A stretch of DNA of 64,000 bases from Opitutus sp. GAS368 (GCA_943373185.1 CALSBN010000001.1:1027-65026); one strand, 5' to 3'. Counted from the first letter of the stretch, positions 1,758 through 17,363 are shown. Translations and numbers: made by a program. The notes: generated from the letters alone by a model not told the origin.

Positions 1758-3212
1758 TCAGGCGAGCCTGAGTGAGATCGTGGCCTCGAAGCCCCGGGGC
1801 GCGCGGTTGCGGAAGACGACGGTGCCGCGGCAGGCGGCGACGGCGGCGCGCACGATGGCGAGACCGAGGCCGTTGCCGCCAGCTTCGTTCGTGCGCGCGG
1901 CGTCGGGTCGGTAAAACGGTTCGCCGAGCCGGGCCAGCGCTTCGGTGGGCACACCGGGGCCTTCGTCGGCCACGGTGAGAATGGCCGTGGAATCCACGGG
2001 CCGGACCGAAACCGTGATCGCTCCGGATGGAGCATAGCGCAGGGCGTTGCGAATGAGATTGCCCAGAGCGCGGTCGAGCAGAGCGGGCTCGGCCAGCACG
2101 GTGAGTTCGGGCGAAAGATCGGCCGTGACGCGGCGGGTGGGATCCTCGCGGGCGAGCACGCGCCGCACGAGAGGAGTGAGCGGCACGGAAGAAAGCGGGA
2201 CGTCGCGGTCGTGGAGCCCGGCTTTGGTGAAGGCGAGCAGCTCGTTGACGAGCGCGGCCATGTGCTGGACTTCTTCCCGCACGTCGGCGATCTGCGGCTG
2301 GAGCGCGGGATCGGCCCGCGACTCCAAGATTTCGGTGGCGACCTGTAGCCGACCGAGCGGCGAGCCGAGTTCGTGCGCGACGTCGCCGAGGAAGCGTTTC
2401 TGACCGTTGACGAAGGTGTCGAGTTGCTCGGCCATGCGGTTGACCGAGTGACCGAGCTGGCCGATTTCGTCGCGCCGACTAAGCTCCACGCGGGTGGCGA
2501 ATTCTCCTTGGGCGATGCGTTCGGTGGCGCCGTTCAAACGTTTGAGGGCGCCGGTGATGCCGCCGACGAGCGGAAGCCAAAAAAGCAGGGAAAGCAAAAG
2601 CGCGCCGGCAGCGACCGCGAGCCCCGGGCCAAGGCGAAGGAGCCGGGCGAGGGTCCACAGCGAATCGGTGCGAATGATGACCGTGCCGGGCGTGGGTGGG
2701 CCGAAGCCGATCTTGATCGGCACCCGCAGGCCGATCCAAGTCGCGGCGGGAGTCGCGGTGCGCACGAGAAATTTCCCGCCGCCCGGCGGGCGGCGATTGG
2801 ACGACAGCGGGCCGTCGGAAGCGGGAGGGTTTACAGGCGATCTGCCTTCGGGCGAGCGCGGGCCGCGTGGCGGTCGGCCGCGATCGAGTTCTTCGCGGAC
2901 CGCTTTTGGCAGGTCGACGGCGTCGCCGGCGACCTGCCGGCCGTCGTTGGTGAACAGAAAAAAATCCGCGCCGTAGTTGAGGCTACGCGAAGCGATGATG
3001 GCCGGTCGTGCGCTCTCGGGTTCCGCCTGCAGGTCGCTCGCGATCGAATCACCGATGCTCTGCAATTGGTCGCCGAGCACGCCATGGGTCAGCGAAGTCC
3101 AGCCCATGCCGAACTGGCTCACGTAGAAGCCGCCGCCCGCCGCTGCCAGCAGCAGCAAATTGACGAGTAGCCAGAGCGAGACTTTGAGCGAAAGGGGAAA
3201 CGAGACTTTCAT
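1758..3212 (-). CDS. sensor histidine kinase (CpxA/EnvZ-like: TM-periplasmic domain-TM-HAMP-HisKA-HATPase)
   Basis: ORF 1758..3458; start moved to the internal ATG (comp. 3210-3212) giving MKVSFPLSLKVSLWLLVNLLLLAAAGG (TM1). H-box FLGDVAHELGSPL, N-box LIRNALRYAP, G-boxes VADEGPGVP and GGNGLGLAIV. Confidence 0.9.
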   Translation of the reverse strand: MKVSFPLSLKVSLWLLVNLLLLAAAGGGFYVSQFGMGWTSLTHGVLGDQLQSIGDSIASDLQAEPESARPAIIASRSLNYGADFFLFTNDGRQVAGDAVDLPKAVREELDRGRPPRGPRSPEGRSPVNPPASDGPLSSNRRPPGGGKFLVRTATPAATWIGLRVPIKIGFGPPTPGTVIIRTDSLWTLARLLRLGPGLAVAAGALLLSLLFWLPLVGGITGALKRLNGATERIAQGEFATRVELSRRDEIGQLGHSVNRMAEQLDTFVNGQKRFLGDVAHELGSPLGRLQVATEILESRADPALQPQIADVREEVQHMAALVNELLAFTKAGLHDRDVPLSSVPLTPLVRRVLAREDPTRRVTADLSPELTVLAEPALLDRALGNLIRNALRYAPSGAITVSVRPVDSTAILTVADEGPGVPTEALARLGEPFYRPDAARTNEAGGNGLGLAIVRAAVAACRGTVVFRNRAPRGFEATISLRLA

Positions 3213-3266
3213 CGCAGGACCGAGTTGTAGCCTAGTCGGGCGTAAAAATCCGCAACGTTTACGCAC

Positions 3267-3305
3267 GCTTAACAAAAATCCGCTGCCTGCACACATCGGC
3301 TTAAC
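3267..3305 (+). promoter_or_regulatory. 39-nt conserved module GCTTAACAAA-N13-CACA(C/T)ATCGGCTTAAC, copy 1 (between the divergent kinase and YHYH-A genes)
   Basis: GCTTAACAAAAATCCGCTGCCTGCACACATCGGCTTAAC. It matches copy 2 at 6535-6573 at 10/10 left-end positions and 15/16 right-end positions. Ends 38 nt before the YHYH-A ATG. Confidence 0.45.
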
Positions 3306-3342
3306 CGCGTCATGGTTTCCTCTGCTCGCATCCTTCATCTCC

Positions 3343-5676
3343 ATGTCGCCCACAAAACAAATTCCCCAAATTATCGGAGTCGCCGCGTCGCTGGCGATTT
3401 CCTGCGTCTCGACCTTCGCCGCCGATCCCCAGCTCGACTCTTGGCAAACGGCCAACACCCGCCGCTACGCGCGCATCTACCCGACGGAGGCGGCCCGGCT
3501 GGCCGGAACCTCCGTGACGACGTGGACGCGCGGCACGACTTCACAGACCACGCCCAGCTACGGGGGTGTGATCCAAGTTTCCTCCTCGGCGAACTGGGTC
3601 TACCTGCGCACGTCCGGTCTCGGCACCCACGTGATGGGACCGTGGTATCTCAATGCCGCGAAGACGCAGGATTTCCCGAGTTACCCCGCCAACTCGGGCG
3701 CGCTTGTCCGTTTCCCGCGCACGCCGACGATTCCCGCGACAAAGACGCTCACCCCCGCCGGTCCGATCGGTTACTTTGTCGACGGCGTCGCCGCCTACGA
3801 CAACCGCGACACCTTCTCTTACATCAACGCCTCCGGGGCCGACGGTTCGCCCACGGGTGGCGGCCGCGGTGACGGCGTTTGGAACCGTGAGGCCTACGCC
3901 AACGAAGGCGTGACGTTCGACCCGGCCTTCGCGCATCAGGCGATGACCAGCCATCACTATCACGCCAACGCCCCGGCGGTGCGGTTCTCGCTCGGCGACC
4001 ATGTGGACTTCAATCCCGTGACGAAGATATACACCGAGAGCACGGCGCCCGTGACGAAACACTCGCCTATCGTCGCGTGGCTCGCCGACGGCCTGCCCGT
4101 CTACGGCCCGTTCGGTTACTCGTCGCCGATGAACCCGGCGAGCGGCCTGCGCCGGATGACTCCGGGCTTCGTCAAACGCGACGGCACCAACGGCACCACG
4201 AATCTCGTCTCCACGGGCCGCACGACGTTGCCCGCTTGGGCCGCCCGCGTGCAGAACCGCAACGCGACGCTGCCGGGCAACCTCACCGGTCCCGCGGTCG
4301 GGCCGGCGTTCCCGCTCGGCAACTACCTCGAAGACTACGACTACCTCGGCGATTTGGGCAAAACTCACGGGGTCGATTTTGACCTCAACGAATACAATGT
4401 TCGGTTTTGCGTGACGCCCGAGTTTCCCAACGGCACCTGGGCCTACTTCCTCACGATCGAGGCCGACGGCACGCCGAAGTTTCCCAATCTCATCGGCCGG
4501 CAATTCTACGGTAACCCCACCGGGGGCAATGTGAACGCGATCACCGAGACCGTGGTCGAGTATGTCCGCGCCAGCCAGGCCTCGCCGATCAGCGTGAATG
4601 CCAGCCAGGCCGGCGCGGCCGTGGCGATCACTTGGACTTCCGTCGAAGGCGCGACCTACCGCATCGAGACCTCGCCCGATGGCGCGACCTGGTCGGCGCT
4701 CGCCGGTGCGGCCGCAATCACGAGCGCGGGCGGCGACACGACGCGTTTTTCGACCGCGACCGTCGCGGCCCACTATCGCGTGACGCTCACCGCGCTCGCG
4801 ACCTACGATACCCGCGGAGCCGGCGGACTTTCCGGGGTGGGCAACGACGCGACCGCGAGCGTGGCGGTCGGCAGCTCGGGCACCGCGCGCTTGGTTTCGG
4901 TCGCCACGAGGGCTCGGATCGGCGGTGCGGCGGGCACGCCGATCGCGGGTTTCCTTCTCACGGGTGCAGGCACAAAGCCGTTGCTCGCCCGCGCTGTCGG
5001 CCCGGGGCTCACCCCGTTTAGCGTCGCGGGCGTGCTGGTCGATCCGCGGCTGAGCCTCGTGCGCGACGGCGTCACGCTCGGCAGCAACGACAACTGGCTG
5101 GCCGCCGACACCGCCACGATGGCCGCATCGGGCGCGTTCGCTCTCGCAGCGGCAAGCCGGGACGCGGCCCTCGTCACCACGCTCGGCGCGGGGCTCTACA
5201 GCACGCCGATCACCGCGACCGACGGCGGCAGCGGCGTCGTGTTGTTGGAAACCTACGACACGGCGATGGACCGCACGCCCACGCTCGCCGCCGCCTCGAC
5301 GCGCGCTTTTGCGGGCACGGGCGATGATGTGCTCATTCCGGCCTTCAACATCAGCGGCACCGGGGCGTTGCGCGTGCTCATCCGGGGAATCGGACCGACT
5401 TTGACCTCGTTCAACGTGAGCGGGGTGCTCGCCGATCCGACGATAACACTCTACCGCGGCCAGACCGCGCTCGCGACCAACGACAACTGGTCGAGCGGAA
5501 TCAACGCGACCGAGCTCGCGGCGGCGGCGGCGACGGTAGGCACCTTTACGCTGACGACGGGCAGCCGGGACGCGGCGTTGATCGCGACGTTGCCCGCCGG
5601 GGCTTACACGGCGGTGTTGGGCGGTGTCGGTGGCACGACCGGCACCGCACTCGTCGAGATCTACGCGTTGCCGTAA
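3343..5676 (+). CDS. secreted YHYH-domain protein with FN3-like domain and two C-terminal ~125-aa tandem repeats
   Basis: ORF 3160..5676; start set at ATG 3343 (MSPTKQIPQIIGVAASLAISCVSTFAADP signal peptide). Motifs AHQAMTSHHYHANAP, ADGLPVYGPFGYSS, NVRFCVTPEFPNGTWAYFLT. FN3-like ITWTSVEGATYRIETSPDGATW. Repeats at about 4885-5259 and 5281-5673. Confidence 0.8.
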   Translation: MSPTKQIPQIIGVAASLAISCVSTFAADPQLDSWQTANTRRYARIYPTEAARLAGTSVTTWTRGTTSQTTPSYGGVIQVSSSANWVYLRTSGLGTHVMGPWYLNAAKTQDFPSYPANSGALVRFPRTPTIPATKTLTPAGPIGYFVDGVAAYDNRDTFSYINASGADGSPTGGGRGDGVWNREAYANEGVTFDPAFAHQAMTSHHYHANAPAVRFSLGDHVDFNPVTKIYTESTAPVTKHSPIVAWLADGLPVYGPFGYSSPMNPASGLRRMTPGFVKRDGTNGTTNLVSTGRTTLPAWAARVQNRNATLPGNLTGPAVGPAFPLGNYLEDYDYLGDLGKTHGVDFDLNEYNVRFCVTPEFPNGTWAYFLTIEADGTPKFPNLIGRQFYGNPTGGNVNAITETVVEYVRASQASPISVNASQAGAAVAITWTSVEGATYRIETSPDGATWSALAGAAAITSAGGDTTRFSTATVAAHYRVTLTALATYDTRGAGGLSGVGNDATASVAVGSSGTARLVSVATRARIGGAAGTPIAGFLLTGAGTKPLLARAVGPGLTPFSVAGVLVDPRLSLVRDGVTLGSNDNWLAADTATMAASGAFALAAASRDAALVTTLGAGLYSTPITATDGGSGVVLLETYDTAMDRTPTLAAASTRAFAGTGDDVLIPAFNISGTGALRVLIRGIGPTLTSFNVSGVLADPTITLYRGQTALATNDNWSSGINATELAAAAATVGTFTLTTGSRDAALIATLPAGAYTAVLGGVGGTTGTALVEIYALP

Positions 5677-5688
5677 CGGAATAGAATG

Positions 5689-5718
5689 TAGGGCGGGGTG
5701 CGGTGACGCCGCCCTACA
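5689..5718. terminator. hairpin between convergent genes (GTAGGGCGG-N12-CCGCCCTAC), possible bidirectional terminator
   Basis: Perfect 9-bp inverted repeat at 5689-5697 / 5710-5718, lying between the YHYH-A stop (5676) and the regulator stop (5734). No U-tract. Confidence 0.35.
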
Positions 5719-5733
5719 GGGGAGGCGGCCGGT

Positions 5734-6477
5734 CTACTCCGGCGCGACCATCATGTAGCCGGCGGAGCGGACGGTGCGGATGAAGCGGGGCGACTGGGCG
5801 TCGTCGTGGAGTTTTTTGCGCAGTGACGAAATGTGGACGTCGATCGAGCGGTCGAAGACGTCGTAGTTGCGGTCGCGCGCCTCATCGAGGAGGGCCTCGC
5901 GGGATTTGATGCGGCCCTTGGCCTTGGCGAGGCTGGCAAGCAGATCGAACTCGACGGGGGTGAGCACGAGGGCCTCGGCGCCGAGCACGGCGGAGCGGGC
6001 GTCAAGGTTGAGCCGGAGATCACCGACGACGATTTCCTTCGGCGGTGGCTCGGCCGACGACGTGGCCTGACCGGTGCCCAGTGCGCTGCGGCGGAGCACG
6101 GCGCGGAGGCGCGCGAGCAGTTCGCGGGTGGAAAATGTTTTCGGCAGATAGTCATCGGCGCCGACTTCGAGGCCAACGATGCGGTCGGTCTCGTCGCCGC
6201 GCGCGGTGAGCATAAGCACGGGCACGGTGGACTTTTGGCGGATGCGTTTCAGCGCCTCGAAGCCGTCGAGCCCGGGCAACATGACGTCGAGGATTACGAT
6301 GTGCGGCGCTGAGGGCCCGATGGCGGTGGCGCGTTCTACGCCCTCGGGGCCGGTGTGGATCGAGGAGACGGCAAAGCCCAGCGGCTCAAGGTAGGTGGTG
6401 ACGAGTCGGCAGAGTTTTTTGTCGTCATCGATCATCAACACGCGCGTGAGACCGAAGGCGGAGGATTCGGCGGTCAT
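5734..6477 (-). CDS. OmpR/PhoB-family response regulator (CpxR-like)
   Basis: ORF 5734..6495 begins with TTG; the ATG six codons in (comp. 6475-6477) gives MTAESSAFGLTRVLMIDDD. Receiver motifs DVMLPGLDGF and LTARGD..DRIVGLEVGADDYLPK. Winged-helix RSIDVHISSLRKKL...IRTVRSAGY. Confidence 0.9.
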   Translation of the reverse strand: MTAESSAFGLTRVLMIDDDKKLCRLVTTYLEPLGFAVSSIHTGPEGVERATAIGPSAPHIVILDVMLPGLDGFEALKRIRQKSTVPVLMLTARGDETDRIVGLEVGADDYLPKTFSTRELLARLRAVLRRSALGTGQATSSAEPPPKEIVVGDLRLNLDARSAVLGAEALVLTPVEFDLLASLAKAKGRIKSREALLDEARDRNYDVFDRSIDVHISSLRKKLHDDAQSPRFIRTVRSAGYMMVAPE

Positions 6478-6523
6478 TGGAGAGAACTTGGGCAAGGTCC
6501 CGGGCCGGGTGCAATCGCCGAGA

Positions 6524-6573
6524 GCTTAACACCGGCTTAACAAATCGGGTGGGCGGTCACATATCGGCTTAAC
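6524..6573 (+). promoter_or_regulatory. conserved 39-nt module copy 2 (6535-6573) plus an extra GCTTAAC 11 bp upstream (6524-6530)
   Basis: GCTTAACACCGGCTTAACAAATCGGGTGGGCGGTCACATATCGGCTTAAC. Lies between the divergent regulator gene and the MbnP/MbnH-like fusion gene. The last heptamer ends 22 nt before ATG 6596, with AGGA at 6583-6586. Confidence 0.45.
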
Positions 6574-6595
6574 AGCGACCGGTCAGGATGGGCGG

Positions 6596-8344
6596 ATGCG
6601 CTTCGTCTTTTTCGTCCTACTGTTGCTTGCCCAAGCGCCGGCGGCCGAGCTCACGCTGGAGTTTGAATTGCGTTGGCGCGGTGCGCCGTTGGCGGTGCCC
6701 TCGGCGGACTTGGCGGGCGCGGGTGATCGGACGCTGCGCATCACGCGGTTTGCCGCGTTGGTGTCGGGCGTCTCGCTGGCGCGGGCCGACGGTGGTGCGG
6801 TGCGGCTCGACGGTCAGTATGGGTTCATCGACGCTGAATCGGGAAAACTGAACATGACGCTGCGCAATGTGCCGGAGGGTGACTACGTGGGGCTGGAGTT
6901 CCAGCTGGGCTTGCCGGCTTCGGTTAACCATGCCGATCCCGCGCAGTGGGCGGCGGGGCATCCGCTCAACCCGATCGTCAACGGACTCCACTGGGGTTGG
7001 GCGGGCGGGTATGTGTTCGCGGCGATCGAGGGGCGCTGGCGAGCGGCGGGGATGCCGGAGGAGCGTGGTTTTTCCTATCACCTCGCGACGGATGCCCGCG
7101 TCATGTGCGTGGGTTTCGTGGCGCTCGTAAAGGTCGCGGGACCGACGACGGTTTCGCTGGCGCTCGATCTGGGCAAGGCGGTGGGCGGCCACGTGCTCGC
7201 CGCCGACGATGGCAGCGAGACGACGCACTCGGCAGCGGATGACGCGCTGGCCGACAAGTTGGCGAACGCGATGGAGCGGGCGTGGTTTTTTCTGGAAGCC
7301 GGGCCGACGAGTGTAGCGCCCGACGTGGGTAGGCCGGTGGGGATTGGCGAAGATATCCCCGGCCTCGTTACCTCGTCCGCTACGACCCCACGACCCTTCG
7401 TCGTGCCCGCAGGGTTTCCGCAGCCGGAGCTACCGGCGGACAATCCGCTCACCGAAGAGGGCGTGGAACTGGGACGCCGGCTTTTTGGCGACCGCCGACT
7501 ATCGGCGCGCAACACCCAGAGCTGCGCCTCTTGTCATGGCATGGAAACGGCATTTTCCGACGGGCGCGCGCTGAGCATCGGCGCGGACGGGAAGCCGGGC
7601 ACGCGGAATTCGATGCCGCTTTTCAATCTCGCGTGGAGCCCGAGCTACGCGTGGGACGGCTCCCAACCGCGACTGCGGGACCAGGCGCTCGCTGCGATCA
7701 CGAACGAAGTCGAAATGCACGCCGACCCGGCGAAGATTGTCGCGGAGCTTGGCGGGGATCGGCGGGTGCGTGAGGATTTCGCGGCGGCGTTTGGCACGCC
7801 GGAAGTCTCCGTGGAGCGCATCGGTCTCGCGCTCGAGCAGTTCATGCTGACGCTGGTCGCAGCGGACTCGAAGTTTGACCGCTCGCTCCGCGGCACGGAG
7901 CAACTCACCGAGGAAGAGCAACGGGGCTTCGCGCTTTTCGTGACCGAGTATGATCCGGTGCGCGGGAAGCTGGGCGCGGATTGTTTTCACTGCCATGGGG
8001 GAACGCTCTTCACGGATTTTGGGTTTCGCAGCAACGGTCTCGACGTCGCGAGCGTCGATGCCGGTCGCGCTGTCGTGACGGGAAAGCCGACGGATGCGGG
8101 CAAATTCAAGACGCCTTCGCTGCGCAATGTCGCGGTCACCGCGCCCTACATGCACGACGGCCGTTTCGGGACGCTCGAAGAAGTCGTGGCCCACTACGAT
8201 CGCAGCGTGCGGCGGGCGGCGAACCTCGACCCCAATCTCGCGAAACATCCCGACGCGGGTTTGCAGCTCACGACCGACGAACAAAAGGCGCTGCTCGCGT
8301 TTCTGCGCACGTTGACCGATTCAAAGTTAGTTTCTTCACCATGA
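6596..8344 (+). CDS. fusion protein: MbnP-like N-terminal domain + di-haem cytochrome c peroxidase/MauG/MbnH-like C-terminal domain
   Basis: Signal peptide MRFVFFVLLLLAQAPAAE. The N-terminal ~255 aa carry an MbnP-type pattern (ITRFAALVSGVSL, YVGLEFQLGLPASVNHADP, NGLHWGWAGGYVFAAIEGRW, FSYHLATD). The C-terminal half has two CxxCH motifs (CASCH 7523-7537, CFHCH 7982-7996), RNSMPLFNLAW and FKTPSLRNVAVTAPYMHDGRFGTLEEVVAHY. Confidence 0.75.
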   Translation: MRFVFFVLLLLAQAPAAELTLEFELRWRGAPLAVPSADLAGAGDRTLRITRFAALVSGVSLARADGGAVRLDGQYGFIDAESGKLNMTLRNVPEGDYVGLEFQLGLPASVNHADPAQWAAGHPLNPIVNGLHWGWAGGYVFAAIEGRWRAAGMPEERGFSYHLATDARVMCVGFVALVKVAGPTTVSLALDLGKAVGGHVLAADDGSETTHSAADDALADKLANAMERAWFFLEAGPTSVAPDVGRPVGIGEDIPGLVTSSATTPRPFVVPAGFPQPELPADNPLTEEGVELGRRLFGDRRLSARNTQSCASCHGMETAFSDGRALSIGADGKPGTRNSMPLFNLAWSPSYAWDGSQPRLRDQALAAITNEVEMHADPAKIVAELGGDRRVREDFAAAFGTPEVSVERIGLALEQFMLTLVAADSKFDRSLRGTEQLTEEEQRGFALFVTEYDPVRGKLGADCFHCHGGTLFTDFGFRSNGLDVASVDAGRAVVTGKPTDAGKFKTPSLRNVAVTAPYMHDGRFGTLEEVVAHYDRSVRRAANLDPNLAKHPDAGLQLTTDEQKALLAFLRTLTDSKLVSSP

Positions 8345-9222
8345 AATATCCCCGATTGCTTGCCGCCTGTTTACTCGCGTCGTTTGCCCGGCTCGGCGCC
8401 GCCGAGACCGAACCGCAGGTCTCCATCACCGTCGAAGGCGACGTTCGAGTGATTCGCGCCAACGGCCTGCCCGACCACGCGACCGGCGCGTTTCCCGGCA
8501 AAGGAAACCCAAACCGGATCAGTGCGCAGAATCATGTTTACCGCGTGCCGATGAAACCGGTGGCAGCGGCCAGGCCTACGCCGCTCGGGATGCAGCCGTT
8601 TGGGATCGCGGTGAACGGCGTGGTCTTCGACCCCGGCGCCAACGAGTGGTGGAACGACGATCGCGCGACCGGCTGGCAATACGAGGCGCTCGGCGGCGGA
8701 CCGAATCTCGGCATCGATAGCAACCACGCTCACGTGCAGCCGACCGGGGCCTATCATTACCACGGGATTCCGGTGGCCCTGCTCAACCGACTTTCGGAGG
8801 GGAAGCCGGCGGTGGTGTTGCTCGGTTGGGCGGCGGACGGATTTCCGATTTACGGGCCGTGGGGTTACTCGAAAACCGATGAAGCGGCGAGCGCGGTCAA
8901 GGTGCTCACCTCGAGTTATCGGATCAAGACGATCGAGCGCGCCGGCGGGCCGGGCGGAAAACCGGACGGAAAATTTGTGCAAGATTACGAATGTGTCGCC
9001 GGCACCGGCGACCTTGACGAGTGCAACGGACGTTTCGCGGTGACGCCGGAATATCCGCAGGGGATTTACCACTACGTGCTCACGGCGGATTACCCCTTTA
9101 TCCCCCGGTTTTTTCGGGGCACGCCGGACGTTAGTTTTGCGCGAAAGGGTCCGCCGCCCGGAGGTGGACAAGGGCCCGGTCGTGAGAAAGGAAAAAAGAA
9201 ACGCCCGCCGCCGGCGCCGTGA
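8341..9222 (+). CDS. secreted YHYH-domain protein (short paralogue)
   Basis: ORF 7981..9222; start at ATG 8341 overlaps the upstream stop (ATGA). Signal peptide MKYPRLLAACLLASFARLGAAE. Motifs AHVQPTGAYHYHGIP, ADGFPIYGPWGYSK, NGRFAVTPEYPQGIYHYVLT. Gly/Lys/Pro-rich C-terminal tail. Confidence 0.8.
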   Translation: MKYPRLLAACLLASFARLGAAETEPQVSITVEGDVRVIRANGLPDHATGAFPGKGNPNRISAQNHVYRVPMKPVAAARPTPLGMQPFGIAVNGVVFDPGANEWWNDDRATGWQYEALGGGPNLGIDSNHAHVQPTGAYHYHGIPVALLNRLSEGKPAVVLLGWAADGFPIYGPWGYSKTDEAASAVKVLTSSYRIKTIERAGGPGGKPDGKFVQDYECVAGTGDLDECNGRFAVTPEYPQGIYHYVLTADYPFIPRFFRGTPDVSFARKGPPPGGGQGPGREKGKKKRPPPAP

Positions 9223-9292
9223 ACCTGTGGGCGGGAGTGCGCGCAGTTGGGGATTGAAGCGGTGTAAGCGGTGCCTAGACCCGAGACACCCT

Positions 9293-10291
9293 ATGAAAAA
9301 CCTCCTCTGCTTCCTTGCGGTGTTTCCTTTCGCGGCGTTTGCCGCTGCGCCCGGTTCGATGCCAACAGTTGGAACGGTCGAGCGGCTCGATCCGGCGTTC
9401 GACGCGTTGATCGCGGCCGATGCGAAGCTCGAAAGACTCGCCGAAGGTTTCAAGTGGTCCGAGGGGCCGGTTTGGTATGAGGGGGCGATCGTGTTTTCGG
9501 ATGTGCCGCAGAACATCGCGTATCGCTGGAAGGAAGGCATGACGTCCGCCGAGGTGTTTTTGAAGCCGAGCGGACTGTTGAATCCGACGCCGGGATTTCG
9601 CGAGCAAGGCAGCAACGGTCTCGCGCTCGACCCGAAGGGCAAATTGCTCCTCTGCATGCACGGGGAGCGGCAGGTGGCGCGCTACGAAAACGGCAAATTT
9701 ACGCCGCTCGCGACGCGTTTCGAGGGCAAGCGCTTCAACAGCCCCAACGACCTCGCCCTGCGGCGCAACGGCGATATTTATTTTACGGATCCCTCTTACG
9801 GTTTGGAGAAAGGGAACGATTCACCGCTTAAAGAACTGCCGTTCAACGGAGTGTATCGGCTCACCCCGGACGGCAAAGTCACGTTGCTGACGAAGAGCAT
9901 TAATTTTCCCAACGGCATCGCGTTCTCGCCCGACGAGAAGGTGCTCTACGTCGCGGTGAGCGACGGCAAAGCGCCGCGGATCATGGCCTACGATGTGACG
10001 GCGGACGGCGGGATCGGGGGTGAGCGGGTTTTCTTCGATGCGCTCGCGCTCAAGACGGCCGGCGGCAAAGGCTCATGCGACGGTTTGAAGATCGATCGCG
10101 CCGGCAATCTCTGGGCGACCGGGCCGGGCGGGGTGCTGGTGATTTCACCGTCGGGCAAACATCTCGGGACGCTGGCGACCGGCGTGCCCACGGCGAACTG
10201 CGGCTGGGGCGACGACGGCAGCACGCTCTATATCACGGCGAACAACATGCTCCTGCGTGTGAAGACGAAGATTAAGGGCGCGGGGTGGTGA
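9293..10291 (+). CDS. secreted SMP-30/gluconolactonase/LRE-family beta-propeller protein
   Basis: ORF 9137..10291; start at ATG 9293 (MKNLLCFLAVFPFAAFAAAPG signal). Motifs EGPVWYEGAIVFSDV, FNSPNDLALRRNGDIYFTDP, FPNGIAFSPDEKVLYVA, DGLKIDRAGNLW. Confidence 0.8.
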   Translation: MKNLLCFLAVFPFAAFAAAPGSMPTVGTVERLDPAFDALIAADAKLERLAEGFKWSEGPVWYEGAIVFSDVPQNIAYRWKEGMTSAEVFLKPSGLLNPTPGFREQGSNGLALDPKGKLLLCMHGERQVARYENGKFTPLATRFEGKRFNSPNDLALRRNGDIYFTDPSYGLEKGNDSPLKELPFNGVYRLTPDGKVTLLTKSINFPNGIAFSPDEKVLYVAVSDGKAPRIMAYDVTADGGIGGERVFFDALALKTAGGKGSCDGLKIDRAGNLWATGPGGVLVISPSGKHLGTLATGVPTANCGWGDDGSTLYITANNMLLRVKTKIKGAGW

Positions 10292-10376: not shown

Positions 10377-11399
10377 CTATTCTTCGCCGTCCCAGTAGTC
10401 CGTATCGGTGGCGCGAAAGAACTTCCGCGGCTCGCGCAGGCCCCATTTGTTGGAGTCGGGATAGTGGAAATAATCGACGGCGGGGTTGTCGGTGATGAGG
10501 AGGTAAAGGACATCGTCGAGGCCGGTGTTGGTGAACTGATGGGCTTCGTTGGGCGGGCAGAGGATGACCTCGCCGGGGCCGGCGACGGTATTGCCCGCCG
10601 GAGTGCGGAAGGTCGCGGTGCCGCTCAGGAAGAGATAGAATTCCCATTGGTTTGCATGCGAGTGGTAGGGGCAGCCGCAGTGACCGGGATCGAGTCGGCC
10701 GAGCTCGAGATCGAACGGATGGCCGCCGAGACCGGTGGGTGTGTTGCGTAACGCGCCCACGGCATAGGAGAGATTTTTTCCGGCGGCGCGGAATTTTTGC
10801 TTCGGCGAGGCCCAAGCCTCAAACGAAAGCTCGTCGAGGTGACGGAGGCGGGAAGAAAACGGCGTGAGTGCGGGCGCGGGCGGCGAGCCCGAAGCCTGAT
10901 ACGGCGGGGCGTCGAGCGCGGGTGGTTCCTCGCCTTCGAAGTAGTCGATCGGTGTGGTGCGGAAAAACATCCCGGGAGGGCGCAGGCCCCATTTGTCGGA
11001 GTCGGGGTAGTGGAAGGCGTCGAGCGGCGGATTGTCGGCGACGATGAGGACTTCGAGATCGGTGGGGCCGGTGTTGGTAAGCTGATGCGGCTCGCCGGGC
11101 GGATGGACAAAGAAATCGCCGGCTTTGATGGCGTGGGTTTCGCCGCCGGCGCGCACGCTGCCGGTGCCCGTGCGGACGAGAAAAAATTCCCACTGGGCGA
11201 GGTGCGAGTGAAACGGACAGACCGCTGCACCCGGCGGAATCTTTCTGATTTGCACATCGAACGGATGCCCGCCGTGCGAGAGTCCGGCGTTGCGCGGCGA
11301 TCCGAGGGCGACGGAGATGTTTTGCGCGAACGAGTGAAACTTGCCCGACGGCGAACGCTGTTCGACCCAAGGGACGCTGGAGAGATGAAGTCGAGGCAT
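10377..11399 (-). CDS. bicupin protein (two tandem cupin domains), unknown function
   Basis: ORF 10377..11540; start at internal ATG (comp. 11397-11399). Duplicated blocks GGHPFD(V/L)...CP(F/Y)HSH..QWEF(F/Y)L...G....R and P.EPHQ(L/F)TNTG..DL(E/Y)(V/L)L.(V/I).DNP..D.FHYPDS(D/N)KWGLR. Confidence 0.7.
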   Translation of the reverse strand: MPRLHLSSVPWVEQRSPSGKFHSFAQNISVALGSPRNAGLSHGGHPFDVQIRKIPPGAAVCPFHSHLAQWEFFLVRTGTGSVRAGGETHAIKAGDFFVHPPGEPHQLTNTGPTDLEVLIVADNPPLDAFHYPDSDKWGLRPPGMFFRTTPIDYFEGEEPPALDAPPYQASGSPPAPALTPFSSRLRHLDELSFEAWASPKQKFRAAGKNLSYAVGALRNTPTGLGGHPFDLELGRLDPGHCGCPYHSHANQWEFYLFLSGTATFRTPAGNTVAGPGEVILCPPNEAHQFTNTGLDDVLYLLITDNPAVDYFHYPDSNKWGLREPRKFFRATDTDYWDGEE

Positions 11400-11433
11400 G
11401 GTGGGAAAAGCGGAGCGAACCCGTGGGCAGATT

Positions 11434-12834
11434 TCAACGCCACGTCCGCCGCCACGTATCGAACTCGGCGGGGCGCACGCGGTAGCGCGCGAAGTTGCCT
11501 TCGTGCAGGCTCGTGAGCTCGGTCTCGGCGAGGGTGGCAAAGTGGGCGCTTTCGCCGGGCTCGGGCAGTTTGCCGGCCTCCCGCCGGATAAACGCGGAGG
11601 CGGCCGGCTTGTCGAAGCCCTGGCGCACGACGTCGCCCACGACTTGTTTCAGCCGATCGCGGTGGCGCAGGCGAAACGCATCGGGCTCGCCCAGCACCTG
11701 CCGCACGGCGGCGTAGCGCGCACACGAACGCTCATACGCCCACTCGAAGACATCGCGCAGGTAGTCGACGCGGTTCAACTCGTAGACGCCGAGGATCGCA
11801 TGCGTGTAGTCGGCCTGCGGCACATCGACGAAGGACAGCGGCCCGAGGTTGCGCTGCACCAGCGGGATGTTGGCGGCTAGCCGCGACACGCGCTTGTTCA
11901 CATCCTCGAACGGTTGGAGGTAGGGCAGCTGCACCATCGCGAAAAACGCCTGCTCGAACGGATCGTGGATCGCGGCCGCGGTGGCGAGAATCTGGTCGAA
12001 GCATTCCTCGATGAACGTCGGCACCTCGGGCGGATGATAGACCGAAGCGCCAATCCCGACGGCGTGGGCGCGCAGCCGCCCGCCGGCGGCCGCCTCGGGC
12101 AGCAGGTTCTCCGACAACAACGCATGGAGATTGCAGAGCGTGTAGCGGTTGAAGCCGATCTCGCCCGCGTGCTCCGCGAGCAGCTCGATCGCGGCTTTGT
12201 GGTTGAGGATCATCTGCGTCTCGTGGGCGGCGCGACCGACTGCGGCCTCGCCTGCTTCGAGCAGACGCTGCGTCTCCAGCAACGAGTAGGTGTTGCCCTC
12301 CAGCCGGCTCGAGTTCCACGACAGATCGATCAAGAGCCGGTCCATCACCTTGCGCAGGTGCGTGCCGGCCGGCAACGCCTCGCCGGTCGTGCGACCGAGG
12401 GCGGAGAGCTTTTTGCGGAGCGCGGGCGAAAGGTATGCGGATACGTTGGGCCGATAGCCGTCGAGAAATGAGAATACATAACCCACCGGCTTGCGGCGGG
12501 TGAGCGGCAGCATGACCAGCTTTTGGGTTTGTTGAGCGCCCCGGGACAAACGGATGCGATCATACTCGGCGGGCAGTTCAGCGACGGCCCACGGCTCTAT
12601 CGCGGGTGCGGCCGGCGATGTCGGATCGGCCACGAAATAACGGCGGCCGCGGCCCTCACCGACGGGCGCGATGCGACCTTGTTTAACGAGCAGTGCGAGC
12701 CAGCGCTGCACGCTGCGGCGGGGCGGCAATGGTTTGAGCGCTTGATGAATCGCATCCACGGCGGCGCCCGACGGCTGCCGGGAAAGGAAGCTGACCAAGG
12801 CGTCGAGTTGGGCGGAAGGAGACGGAAGTGGCAT
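11434..12834 (-). CDS. Fic/DOC-family protein with N-terminal winged-helix domain and a degenerate Fic motif
   Basis: ORF 11434..12870 (GTG); ATG at comp. 12832-12834 gives MPLPSPSAQLD. The Fic core position reads QPFEDVNKRVSR (comp. 11881-11916) rather than HxFx(D/E)GNGRxxR. Confidence 0.7.
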   Translation of the reverse strand: MPLPSPSAQLDALVSFLSRQPSGAAVDAIHQALKPLPPRRSVQRWLALLVKQGRIAPVGEGRGRRYFVADPTSPAAPAIEPWAVAELPAEYDRIRLSRGAQQTQKLVMLPLTRRKPVGYVFSFLDGYRPNVSAYLSPALRKKLSALGRTTGEALPAGTHLRKVMDRLLIDLSWNSSRLEGNTYSLLETQRLLEAGEAAVGRAAHETQMILNHKAAIELLAEHAGEIGFNRYTLCNLHALLSENLLPEAAAGGRLRAHAVGIGASVYHPPEVPTFIEECFDQILATAAAIHDPFEQAFFAMVQLPYLQPFEDVNKRVSRLAANIPLVQRNLGPLSFVDVPQADYTHAILGVYELNRVDYLRDVFEWAYERSCARYAAVRQVLGEPDAFRLRHRDRLKQVVGDVVRQGFDKPAASAFIRREAGKLPEPGESAHFATLAETELTSLHEGNFARYRVRPAEFDTWRRTWR

Positions 12835-12840
12835 ATTGAA

Positions 12841-12994
12841 GAAGTGGCGCGATTTGGATAACCGCGCCACTTCTCGCCCCTTATTTGGCGCATTTTGGGT
12901 TATTGCGCCACTAAAATCGCCTATGGGAAACCAGAAATTAGCTTAATTGCGCCACAATAAATGACGTTGTGGCGCGAAAGCTGAATCGCGCCAC
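12841..12994. promoter_or_regulatory. cluster of six GCGCCAC/GTGGCGC heptamers, including two perfect palindromes, upstream of the Fic gene
   Basis: GAAGTGGCGCG-N11-CGCGCCACTTC (12841-12873). GCGCCACAA-N9-TTGTGGCGC (12949-12975). Further copies at 12905-12911 and 12988-12994, and a variant TTGGCGC at 12886-12892. Confidence 0.45.
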
Positions 12995-16031: not shown

Positions 16032-17363
16032 ATGAACTACGAACAAAAACACATCGCCGGCATGAGTCGCTGGTTTCTCATCGCTTATTGGGTCCACGTG
16101 CCGGTTTTTGCGGCGATCGCGTTCTTTAGATCCACAAGCCTGGTCGAGGCGCTTGTGATCGGTCTCGTCGCGGTGGCGGGGCCGACCGTCCTGCACTTCA
16201 TGAGTCCAGGCAGCCGTTTGACCAGCGTGGCGATGGGCGTGGGCGGGATGGCGCTCAGTGCGGGACTGATCCACCTCGGCGGAGGCAGCATCGAGATGCA
16301 CTTTCATGTTTTCGTTTTGATTCCGATGCTGGCGGTATTCGGTCAGCCGATCGTCGTGCTCGCGGCGGCGGCGGTGATCGCGGTTCACCATGTGGCCTTT
16401 TTCTTTTTCCTGCCGAAGAGCCTCTTTTATTACGAAGCGTCGCTGTGGGTCGTGGTGCTTCACGCGGTCTTCGTGATTCTCGCGGCCGTGCCGGGATGTT
16501 TCATCGCCCAGATATTTGGCCGTTACGTCGTCGGCGCGCGCAAAGTGATGGGCGAGCTGGGCGGAGCCGGGGCGTCGTTGGCGAATTCGGCGGACGAGCT
16601 GACGGCCGCGAGCACGTCGCTCGCCGGTGAAGCAAGTGTGCAGGCGGCGGCGGTGGAGGAGATCAGTGCGACGCTGCACGAGTTCTCGTCGCAGGCCCGG
16701 CTGAGCAACGACCGGTTGACGACGGTGAAGACGAAGCAACTGGAGCAGATGCGCGCGGCGCTCGGCGCGATCGAGACCTCGGGGGCCAAGCTGAACACGG
16801 CGATGACCGGCATCGGCGAATCGAGCCAGGCGATCACGAAGATCGTGAAGACGATCGAGGAGATCGCGTTTCAGACGAATATCTTGGCGCTTAACGCGGC
16901 GGTGGAAGCGGCGCGGGCCGGCGAAGTCGGCGCGGGTTTTGCGGTCGTCGCCGGGGAAGTGCGGACGTTGGCGGGCCGTGCGGCGCAGGCGGCGCAGGAG
17001 ACGGGCGGACTGGTCACGTTGGCCGCCGAGAGGGGCAGCGAAGGCGCGCGGGTGAACGCGGAAGTTTCGGGCCGGTTGTCGGTCGTGCAGGTGGCGTTCC
17101 GTGAGCTCGACGGTTTGGTCGGCGAAGTGGCGCAATCGCTGGGCCAACAGGTCGCGGGCGTGGACCAGATCACTTCGGCGATGGAGAGCATCGACAAGAA
17201 CGCGCAGGCGGGAAGCGCGCGCTCGGAAGAGCTGTCGGCGACGGCGATCACGTTGCGCGAGCAGGCGGGGCTGGTCTCGGGTGCGATCGGAGAACTTGAG
17301 CGGTTGACGGGGAAGCCGAACGCCGAAACCGACGCCAAGTCGAAGCTGGGGCTGGCGGCGTAG
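16032..17363 (+). CDS. methyl-accepting chemotaxis protein with an all-membrane 6-TM His-rich N-terminal domain
   Basis: Signalling hairpin [48 protein letters not shown]. The N-terminal ~165 aa are six hydrophobic helices. I recognise no periplasmic domain and no HAMP. Confidence 0.9.

Follow-up and report, generated by a model that had tools for sequence, protein, structure and literature searches.

What could bring together two secreted proteins of the YHYH family, a fusion of MbnP-like and MbnH-like domains and a two-component system (TCS), whose genes lie interleaved at a single locus? The locus occupies positions 1,758 to 10,291 of a 64,000-nucleotide stretch of DNA from Opitutus sp. 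GAS368 (GCA_943373185.1 CALSBN010000001.1:1027-65026, one strand, 5' to 3'), which we call the window and in which positions are counted from the first letter. To our knowledge, YHYH (PF14240) is a large family, distributed from bacteria to phages, giant viruses and diatoms, whose function has yet to be tested and for which no structure has been solved. A first-pass annotation of the window had proposed that the region is an envelope metal-handling module and had staked this claim on the co-localisation of its genes in related genomes. Across the surveyed loci the YHYH, MbnP/MbnH and two-component genes do stay together, and they form the core of a cassette whose role is the subject of this analysis.

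Related loci (given L numbers) were surveyed from three anchors: YHYH-B, the shorter of the two YHYH proteins (80 genome loci); the MbnP domain (80 metagenome loci); and YHYH-A, the longer one (10 look-ups of relatives with 56-67% identity on long contigs). Clustering of neighbours by open reading frames (ORFs) was crude and was disturbed by antisense ORFs in the high-GC DNA. Upstream neighbours were counted in those 51 MbnP-anchored metagenome loci whose upstream DNA covers 2.5 kb or more. A YHYH-A-type gene is found on the same strand no more than 3.5 kb upstream in 42 of them, and elsewhere in the locus in 7 more, leaving L143 and L150 alone without any such match; a response regulator is found in 40 and a histidine kinase in 31. 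The YHYH-A look-ups agree, with YHYH-A directly followed by a protein carrying MbnP and CCP_MauG domains in 8 of 10 and a TCS present in 8 of 10. One ORF encodes both MbnP and MbnH in 70 of 71 related loci, and Pfam finds the two domains together in the same product in L081, L082, L084, L165, L167, L169, L171 and L172. The pairing of YHYH-A with the fusion persists to 33-40% MbnP identity and outlasts rearrangements in which the regulator gene is inserted between the two, the TCS lies on either strand, the YHYH gene is duplicated or the regulator family is changed. Stop and start codons at the junctions often overlap or nearly abut (L165, L169 and the ATGA of the window). Because it is conserved across so many loci, the arrangement is far beyond chance, and the three-anchor surveys together define a conserved core with three parts: a long protein of the YHYH-A type, an MbnP::MbnH fusion encoded by one ORF, and a TCS of the OmpR type.

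The two remaining genes that had been assigned to the module do not belong to this core. YHYH-B lies downstream of the fusion in just 5 of 53 MbnP-anchored loci and adjoins MbnP/MbnH genes in only 8 of the 80 loci anchored on YHYH-B itself, and is thus an accessory member of the cassette. In L004, L005 and L018 it adjoins the same regulator-kinase pair without the fusion. The SMP-30-like propeller is a lineage-specific neighbour and not a conserved member, because among the related loci it is found downstream in L001 and L085 only (tblastn). These two Opitutaceae loci from metagenome-assembled genomes are the nearest relatives of the whole region, with 82-95% amino-acid identity. Long YHYH genes also occur as tandem duplicates, with the fusion present in L171 (3142-7707), L086 (458-4334) and L095 (2081-7776) and without it in L166 (7001-10289).

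Within the window, the ORF listing bears out all six genes in the order and on the strands that had been claimed; gene starts were refined by direct reading of the spacer sequence, on top of the ORF listing and profile searches (Table 1). The assignments to YHYH, MbnP, CCP/MauG, OmpR-type TCS and SMP-30 families all lie above their Pfam thresholds. The ATG of YHYH-B overlaps the TGA of the fusion gene, as had been described, and the paralogy of the two YHYH proteins is upheld by 22% identity over 330 columns (E 5e-13), with the shared blocks of the first-pass annotation visible in the alignment. All four plus-strand products have predicted signal peptides, recognised by eye only from hydrophobic N-termini with Ala-rich cleavage-like ends.

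Table 1. Features of the YHYH/MbnP::MbnH locus and its flanks (positions in the window)
Feature	Position	Strand	Evidence and remarks
HK, sensor histidine kinase, 484 aa	1758..3212	-	HAMP, HisKA, HATPase_c (Pfam)
cis element 1	3258..3305	+	TTTAC-N5-CTTAAC and second CTTAAC; end 38 nt upstream of YHYH-A start
YHYH-A, secreted long-type YHYH, 777 aa	3343..5676	+	PF14240, 92.5 bits
RR, OmpR/PhoB-type response regulator	5734..6477	-	Response_reg and Trans_reg_C; ORF extends to TTG at 6495
cis element 2	6526..6573	+	TTAAC-N5-CTTAAC and second CTTAAC; end 23 nt upstream of fusion start
MbnP::MbnH fusion, 582 aa	6596..8344	+	MbnP PF20243, 97 bits (cut-off 27); CCP_MauG, 171 bits
YHYH-B, secreted short-type YHYH, 293 aa	8341..9222	+	PF14240, 237.5 bits
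SGL, secreted SMP-30/gluconolactonase-like propeller	9293..10291	+	PF08450, 157 bits
Flank: multi-pass membrane protein, 316 aa	637..1587	-	no Pfam or NCBIfam match
Flank: bicupin	10377..11540	-	Cupin_2 twice, 108 bits; convergent to cassette
Flank: Fic-domain protein	11434..12870	-	40 bits

YHYH-A and the fusion are further linked by a shared cis element, which had been noticed at the outset and is indeed present in the same orientation in both divergent spacers (Table 1). The element is 48 nucleotides (nt) long and reads TTWAC-N5-CTTAACAA, then CACA, with a second CTTAAC whose start lies 32 nt beyond that of the first; the box spacings of 11 nt and 32 nt place the boxes on one face of the DNA. 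The window contains two copies of its core, TTWAC-N5-CTTAACA, where 0.07 would be expected; none of 100 shuffled sequences had as many as two. An extra GCTTAAC at 6524 lies beside cis element 2. The sixth GCTTAAC of the window, at 16889, was rejected as a site since it falls within a chemoreceptor-like coding region, and scans for sigma-70 and terminator consensus sequences were uninformative, giving the same counts as shuffles. The position of cis element 1 is kept in L001, L003, L009, L013, L015, L082, L085, L086, L089-L091 and others. The 2.19 Mb of fetched loci contain 44 copies of the full element, all on the gene strand and, where the downstream gene was matched, about 50-370 nt upstream of a match to the fusion or to a YHYH-A-type gene; a single copy, that of L018, lies before YHYH-B. 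Two copies, one per unit, are present where the regulator gene lies between YHYH-A and the fusion (the window, L001, L085, L089, L090 and L113), and one copy only was found in several contiguous operons (L015, L146, L147 and L167). Its presence tracks the type of regulator: of 36 loci with a regulator sharing 60% identity or more with that of the window, 29 have the element; of 20 with a regulator under 45% identity, none does. Together, these patterns argue strongly, though indirectly, for the element as the putative binding site of the cognate regulator and for YHYH-A and the fusion as one regulon.

The regulator has a receiver domain (89.3 bits) and a Trans_reg_C domain (84.3 bits, both Pfam), the hallmark of the OmpR/PhoB family, and its orthologues, 62-91% identical, occupy the same position in related loci. 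The kinase is built of two transmembrane segments with a variable Pro/Gly/Arg-rich periplasmic region, followed by HAMP-HisKA-HATPase_c. Its best NCBIfam models are CpxA, BaeS and CusS-like, all below cut-off; the best models for the system as a whole include CpxA/CpxR and OmpR, and the regulator scores below every NCBIfam equivalog cut-off. Judged by these profiles, the TCS is generic in type. The first-pass annotation was right that kinase and regulator are not adjacent in the window, but the split is not a general property of the cassette. It recurs in Opitutaceae-like loci (L001, L003, L009, L013, L082, L085, L089-L091, L098, L104 and L172), while regulator and kinase genes are adjacent in more distant ones (L007, L015, L081, L118, L165, L167 and L169). 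This distribution marks the split as a rearrangement specific to one lineage, of Opitutaceae type, in which the adjacent pair still seen in distant loci was broken up and the regulator gene moved between YHYH-A and the fusion. Pro/Gly/Arg-rich sequence of low complexity is found in the periplasmic region of the kinase (window 2350-3212, minus strand), in the tail of YHYH-B (9130-9222, GPPPGGGQGPGREKGKKKRPPPAP) and in the N-termini of EF-hand proteins encoded near other cassettes; these recurring stretches may be a common interaction or disorder feature. Some cassettes have genes nearby that resemble extracytoplasmic function (ECF) sigma factors by eye (L098 276-974, L111 1717-2400, L130 11976-12668, L148 12285-12962 and L150 1011-1775). 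L150 has neither YHYH nor TCS; there, a sulfatase-fusion pair is preceded, in divergent orientation, by the ECF-sigma-like gene and a candidate anti-sigma gene.

The fusion protein consists of a signal peptide, an MbnP domain (residues ~17-195), a linker of ~70 residues and a di-haem MauG/MbnH-like domain (~280-582), whose translation contains two haem motifs, CASCH and CFHCH. The best PDB match of the haem domain is MbnH (6E1C, 8e-56). Tyr534 of the fusion aligns with Met275 of the P. aeruginosa cytochrome c peroxidase chain, a residue that we take to be a haem ligand, and 6E1C likewise has a Tyr at this position. With two CxxCH motifs and a Tyr in place of the Met, the domain can be assigned to the MauG/MbnH type; its best NCBIfam model is the MbnH equivalog TIGR04039, ahead of MauG (TIGR03791, 165 bits). 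The other half matches the Pfam MbnP family PF20243 over residues 17-195 (97.0 bits). Its WxW motif, W133-G-W135, is invariant in both a 15-sequence and a 40-sequence alignment of the MbnP family and aligns with the WNW of MbnP (7L6G), and H162 and H211 are also invariant in the 40 diverse sequences. The match to 7L6G is weak (E 0.012) and comes from the 40-sequence profile alone; neither the single MbnP-domain sequence nor the 15-sequence profile recovered this structure. The domain is best described, from its sequence, as a divergent subfamily of MbnP.

Fusions of this kind are already present in the databases as an architecture. An exhaustive search gave 2501 representatives of the MbnP family, and about 20 of the top 150 are of fusion length; those checked hold both domains and are publicly annotated as 'cytochrome c peroxidase' or 'MbnP family protein'. 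The named hosts of the fusion subfamily are Verrucomicrobiota (Opitutaceae, Limisphaerales, Prosthecobacter/Verrucomicrobiales) and one Sphaerotilus. In the Sphaerotilus locus (L168) the fused gene (6282-7847, minus strand) has no YHYH neighbour. Divergent from it lies a gene (8001-9806, plus strand) whose secreted product carries a lysyl-oxidase domain (PF01186), the mark of a family of copper/quinone-cofactor enzymes. This single case fits the idea of fusions that serve secreted metalloenzymes.

Both YHYH proteins pass the PF14240 threshold of 25 bits. YHYH-A, which has 1868 relatives, is composed of an N-terminal extension, the YHYH core and a C-terminal region of 337 residues (4663-5676) for which Pfam has no match even at E = 1. 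By eye this region contains two similar modules of ~130 residues, each ending in ...DP.(L/I).L....(L/A)..ND(N)W; some YHYH-A homologues have Ig-like matches here (PF07679, PF13927), and relatives of 480-600 residues are without part of the region. YHYH-B has a Gly/Pro/Lys-rich tail and more than 5800 relatives at 55-85% identity in Verrucomicrobiota, Planctomycetota, Obscuribacterales, Alphaproteobacteria and others. Its orthologues in L001-L080 are 49-69% identical (best tblastn segment), come from very distant phyla and have no conserved neighbours, the distant groups including Planctomycetota, Obscuribacterales, Alphaproteobacteria, Nitrospirales, Armatimonadota and Omnitrophota; such conservation suggests strong constraint, horizontal spread or both. 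A few YHYH-B homologues (P0092, P0111) carry C-terminal EF-hands, and another YHYH homologue (P0192) has a C-terminal match to a sulfatase domain.

A His triad is invariant in both types, as H110/H118/H120 in trimmed YHYH-B numbering and H198/H205/H207 in YHYH-A. D76, D105 and D145 (trimmed YHYH-B numbering) are invariant across 116 sequences, together with Gln, Tyr and Trp residues. The long type has further invariant residues that the short type is without: W34, Y42, W61, M98, W101, Y102, H240, M272, W299 and C356. AlphaFold2 gives for YHYH-B a mostly beta model with a predicted local distance difference test score (pLDDT) of 94.1 and a predicted template modelling score (pTM) of 0.92 when both subfamilies are supplied (116 sequences); from 20 close homologues alone the pLDDT was 43, and it was the addition of the YHYH-A subfamily that made the prediction confident. 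Sequence and profile searches of the PDB with YHYH returned noise only, and Foldseek found nothing in the PDB better than E = 1 for the model; these searches detected no hydrolase fold or motif. Against BFVD, Foldseek matched only the YHYH domains of cyanophage and giant-virus structural or baseplate proteins, with a template modelling score (TM) up to 0.81. As far as experiments go, the first-pass annotation was right that YHYH is without an assigned function; a prediction has been published, however, the sole functional statement found in the literature: the His triad and an Asp are predicted to form a Zn2+ site, and phage YHYH proteins to be tail-associated hydrolases (PMC7824862).

How might these parts work together? 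The explanation that we favour, tentatively and at somewhat less than an even chance, is an inducible envelope cassette in which the TCS drives expression of a long YHYH protein and an MbnP::MbnH fusion, and in which the fusion forms a copper site and exchanges metal with YHYH as the effector. The kinase would sense a periplasmic cue and phosphorylate the regulator, which would bind the tandem TTWAC-N5-CTTAAC boxes before YHYH-A and the fusion and activate both; given the location of the element between divergent genes, the regulator may act on its own gene and on the kinase gene as well. Using peroxide or O2, the MauG-type di-haem domain would convert one Trp of the WxW motif in the MbnP domain of the same chain into kynurenine and so create a site for copper, in the way that MbnH acts on MbnP. 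In MbnP itself, conversion of the WxW Trp to kynurenine by MbnH is required for copper binding (PMC11951088), and by this analogy copper is the likely metal. The MbnP domain would then exchange metal with the His3/Asp site of YHYH, which would be the real effector of the cassette, be it a metalloprotein or a metalloenzyme. Kynurenine formation, metal transfer to YHYH and binding of the regulator to the element are steps that we infer. A more specific proposal, that the long YHYH protein is a dedicated client and that the fusion loads metal into its His3/Asp centre or matures it oxidatively, strikes us as doubtful; if true, it would amount to a new periplasmic metalloenzyme-maturation system and to the first function for PF14240.

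Several observations weigh against a copper-handling cassette of this kind. The kinase scores 140.9 bits against a cut-off of 292.55 for the heavy-metal sensors of TIGR01386 (CztS/SilS/CopS), the regulator 151.1 against 279.2 for TIGR01387 (CztR/SilR/CopR), and no conserved His, Met or Cys metal ligands were found in the sensor region across 30 kinase orthologues. With the TCS below the cut-offs of the heavy-metal families, metal handling by the cassette is put forward as a hypothesis. The haem domain reaches 233.2 of the 362.85 bits set for MbnH (TIGR04039). The MbnP domain reaches 45.4 of the 140 bits of its own equivalog, TIGR04052 ('MbnP_like_WxW'), with a match confined to residues 88-163 around the WxW. 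The four-Cys motif is absent ('four-Cys motif protein' is the name in the PDB entry 7L6G): the 270-residue MbnP region has one Cys, and none is invariant in the 40 sequences of the family, among which there is no invariant Met either. Because the domain lies below the TIGR04052 cut-off and has no four-Cys motif, its copper binding is proposed by inference. The crude ORF-based clustering revealed no copper transporter, CopC/D, PCuAC or TonB receptor as a conserved neighbour. YHYH-B-type genes are without MbnP/MbnH in 72 of 80 loci, so that YHYH does not in general need the fusion as a partner. The one published prediction found for the His3/Asp site is, moreover, Zn-hydrolase-like (PMC7824862).

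Two kinds of recurrent neighbour point in other directions as well, and the copper model accounts for neither. Small secreted EF-hand proteins, which have between two and four loops and an N-terminus rich in Gly/Pro or in His, recur in 14 metagenome loci and in L169 and L171, a hint of a Ca2+ link or other chemistry. In many distant cassettes their genes immediately follow the fusion, precede YHYH or follow the kinase (for example L148 10290-10862, L129 10354-10908 and L160 4131-4670, in the L120-L163 group, L169 5669-6004 and L171 128-532). A general linkage of YHYH-B with EF-hand genes was rejected, at 2 of 80 loci. Sulfatase genes (PF00884) are found in operon positions beside the fusion, YHYH or the kinase, some with 4-nt overlaps: L165 10491-12005, L170 7848-9368, L150 2175-3833, L009 5182-7260, L013 5098-7179, L015 1329-3035 and L018 1196-2806. 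Sulfatases are very abundant in these phyla, and it is possible that they are neighbours by chance.

Taken at face value, the repeated presence of sulfatases in the operons (L165, L170, L150, L009/L013 and L015/L018) would suit a different function, in which YHYH is a secreted Zn hydrolase acting on envelope or extracellular polymers, the TCS a Cpx/OmpR-like sensor of stress or substrate, and the fusion an auxiliary redox or metal-buffering partner. The predicted Zn site of a tail-associated hydrolase formed by the His triad and Asp (PMC7824862), the viral structural and baseplate proteins that are the sole structural neighbours of YHYH, the Ig-like or beta-sandwich C-terminal modules on long YHYH proteins and the CpxA/CpxR and OmpR models that best match the kinase and regulator are all in keeping with it. 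However, those Cpx and OmpR scores are all far under their cut-offs, no hydrolase fold or motif was detected, and the near-obligate pairing of long YHYH with a MauG-type, Trp-oxidising copper-protein fusion is left unexplained; we consider the hydrolase unlikely.

The same pairing could also mean that the di-haem domain acts on YHYH-A, much as MauG acts on pre-methylamine dehydrogenase, and would install a Trp- or Tyr-derived cofactor or cross-link in it, with MbnP as a docking or electron-relay module. This would draw on the MauG/MbnH character of the haem domain, with Tyr replacing the canonical Met ligand, and on the extra invariant aromatic or redox-capable residues of the long type (W34, Y42, W61, W101, Y102, H240, W299 and C356), and it would suit the specific association of the fusion with the long type (8 of 10) as against the short type (8 of 80). 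The strict conservation of WxW in the fused MbnP domain, however, means that a substrate in cis is already at hand, and none of 8 long MbnP-family representatives is a YHYH::MbnP::MbnH triple fusion; we regard YHYH-A as a decidedly unlikely substrate. That the cassette is nothing but inherited synteny within Verrucomicrobiota, with no common function, is highly improbable: the organism names of the fusion subfamily are almost all verrucomicrobial and other neighbours such as the bicupin resemble plain synteny, but the pairing outlives divergence to 33-40% MbnP identity, rearrangement and a change of regulator family, both units are preceded by a common oriented element, and overlapping or near-abutting stop/start junctions are common.

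The bicupin gene, convergent to the cassette in the window, has homologues in no fewer than 14 related loci, where they come immediately after the fusion or YHYH-B; these loci include L003, L009, L013, L016, L082, L098, L104, L109, L113 and L124. It may represent plain Opitutaceae synteny or a further metal-protein member. The genes for the Fic-domain protein and the 316-residue membrane protein flank the region in the window, where no link to the cassette was seen.

The closest known system is the MbnP/MbnH 'metallo-mystery pair' of Methylosinus trichosporium OB3b (7L6G, 6E1C), in which a periplasmic WxW partner is likewise encoded beside a MauG-like di-haem enzyme. MbnP/MbnH pairs occur in many bacteria beyond methanobactin operons, where their physiological role is unsettled. 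Unlike these pairs, the protein described here is one polypeptide (70 of 71 loci), both its halves fall under the TIGR04052 and TIGR04039 cut-offs and the four-Cys motif is missing. We saw no methanobactin genes here and no MbnT-like TonB transporter as a conserved neighbour. The obligate neighbours are instead the long YHYH gene and a TCS, whereas in the known system they are the sigma/anti-sigma pair MbnI/MbnR (PMC3621798). The cassette is related to the MbnP/MbnH pair and presumably operates in a similar way, without being its equivalog. The first-pass annotation knew of no described link between YHYH and MbnP/MbnH, and the literature searched, a scope that left out the operon-survey papers on MbnP/MbnH, likewise held none. 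Those papers (by Kenney in JBC in 2019 and by Manesis in PNAS in 2021 and again in 2023) reportedly list copper genes and TonB transporters in the operons, and not YHYH.

Other systems share parts of the design. MopE/SACCP of Methylococcus capsulatus and CorA/CorB of Methylomicrobium album are copper-regulated surface copper proteins with kynurenine and an adjacent MauG-like peroxidase (PMC3621798, PMC11951088). The likeness lies in a secreted or surface protein of copper-protein type encoded beside a MauG-like peroxidase, copper being in our case presumed. The folds of these proteins are unlike MbnP, they are unfused and have no YHYH partner, and they are specific to methanotrophs. From the organism names we presume that the hosts of the cassette are heterotrophic-type Verrucomicrobiota. 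MauG, which acts on pre-methylamine dehydrogenase in the biogenesis of tryptophan tryptophylquinone, belongs to the same di-haem superfamily and matches the haem domain in the Tyr at the Met position. The Trp that MauG oxidises, at long range, belongs to a partner protein, and the likely substrate of the fusion is its own MbnP domain or YHYH; the TIGR03791 score lies far from its cut-off (165 vs 444 bits), and there are no methylamine dehydrogenase subunits here. Systems of the CusRS and CopRS type, which respond to copper and control periplasmic copper proteins, resemble the TCS in combining an OmpR-family regulator with a HAMP-HisKA kinase, in being divergent from genes for secreted metal proteins and in direct-repeat boxes about one helical turn apart, but the scores fall under TIGR01386 and TIGR01387, and the sensor region is Pro/Gly-rich without conserved His or Met. 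The YHYH domains of cyanophages and giant viruses (Iyer et al. 2021, PMC7824862) share with those of the cassette the Pfam family, the predicted fold and the His triad. They are fused to tail or baseplate modules, whereas the cassette YHYH proteins are stand-alone and predicted to be periplasmic, in a regulated operon with MbnP::MbnH.

The single-chain MbnP::MbnH protein is the normal form in this whole clade and could be a convenient model for intramolecular Trp oxidation of the MauG type. For YHYH, a large uncharacterised family, the cassette provides a first genomic context, regulon and cis element, and the presence of the same trio in dozens of other genomes is the first testable clue to its role. 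The handles for such tests are one regulator with its DNA box, one fusion that can be assayed for kynurenine and copper, and one partner that can be assayed for metal or modification. The cassette and its cis element thus link the role of MbnP/MbnH with the function of YHYH and make both of them testable.

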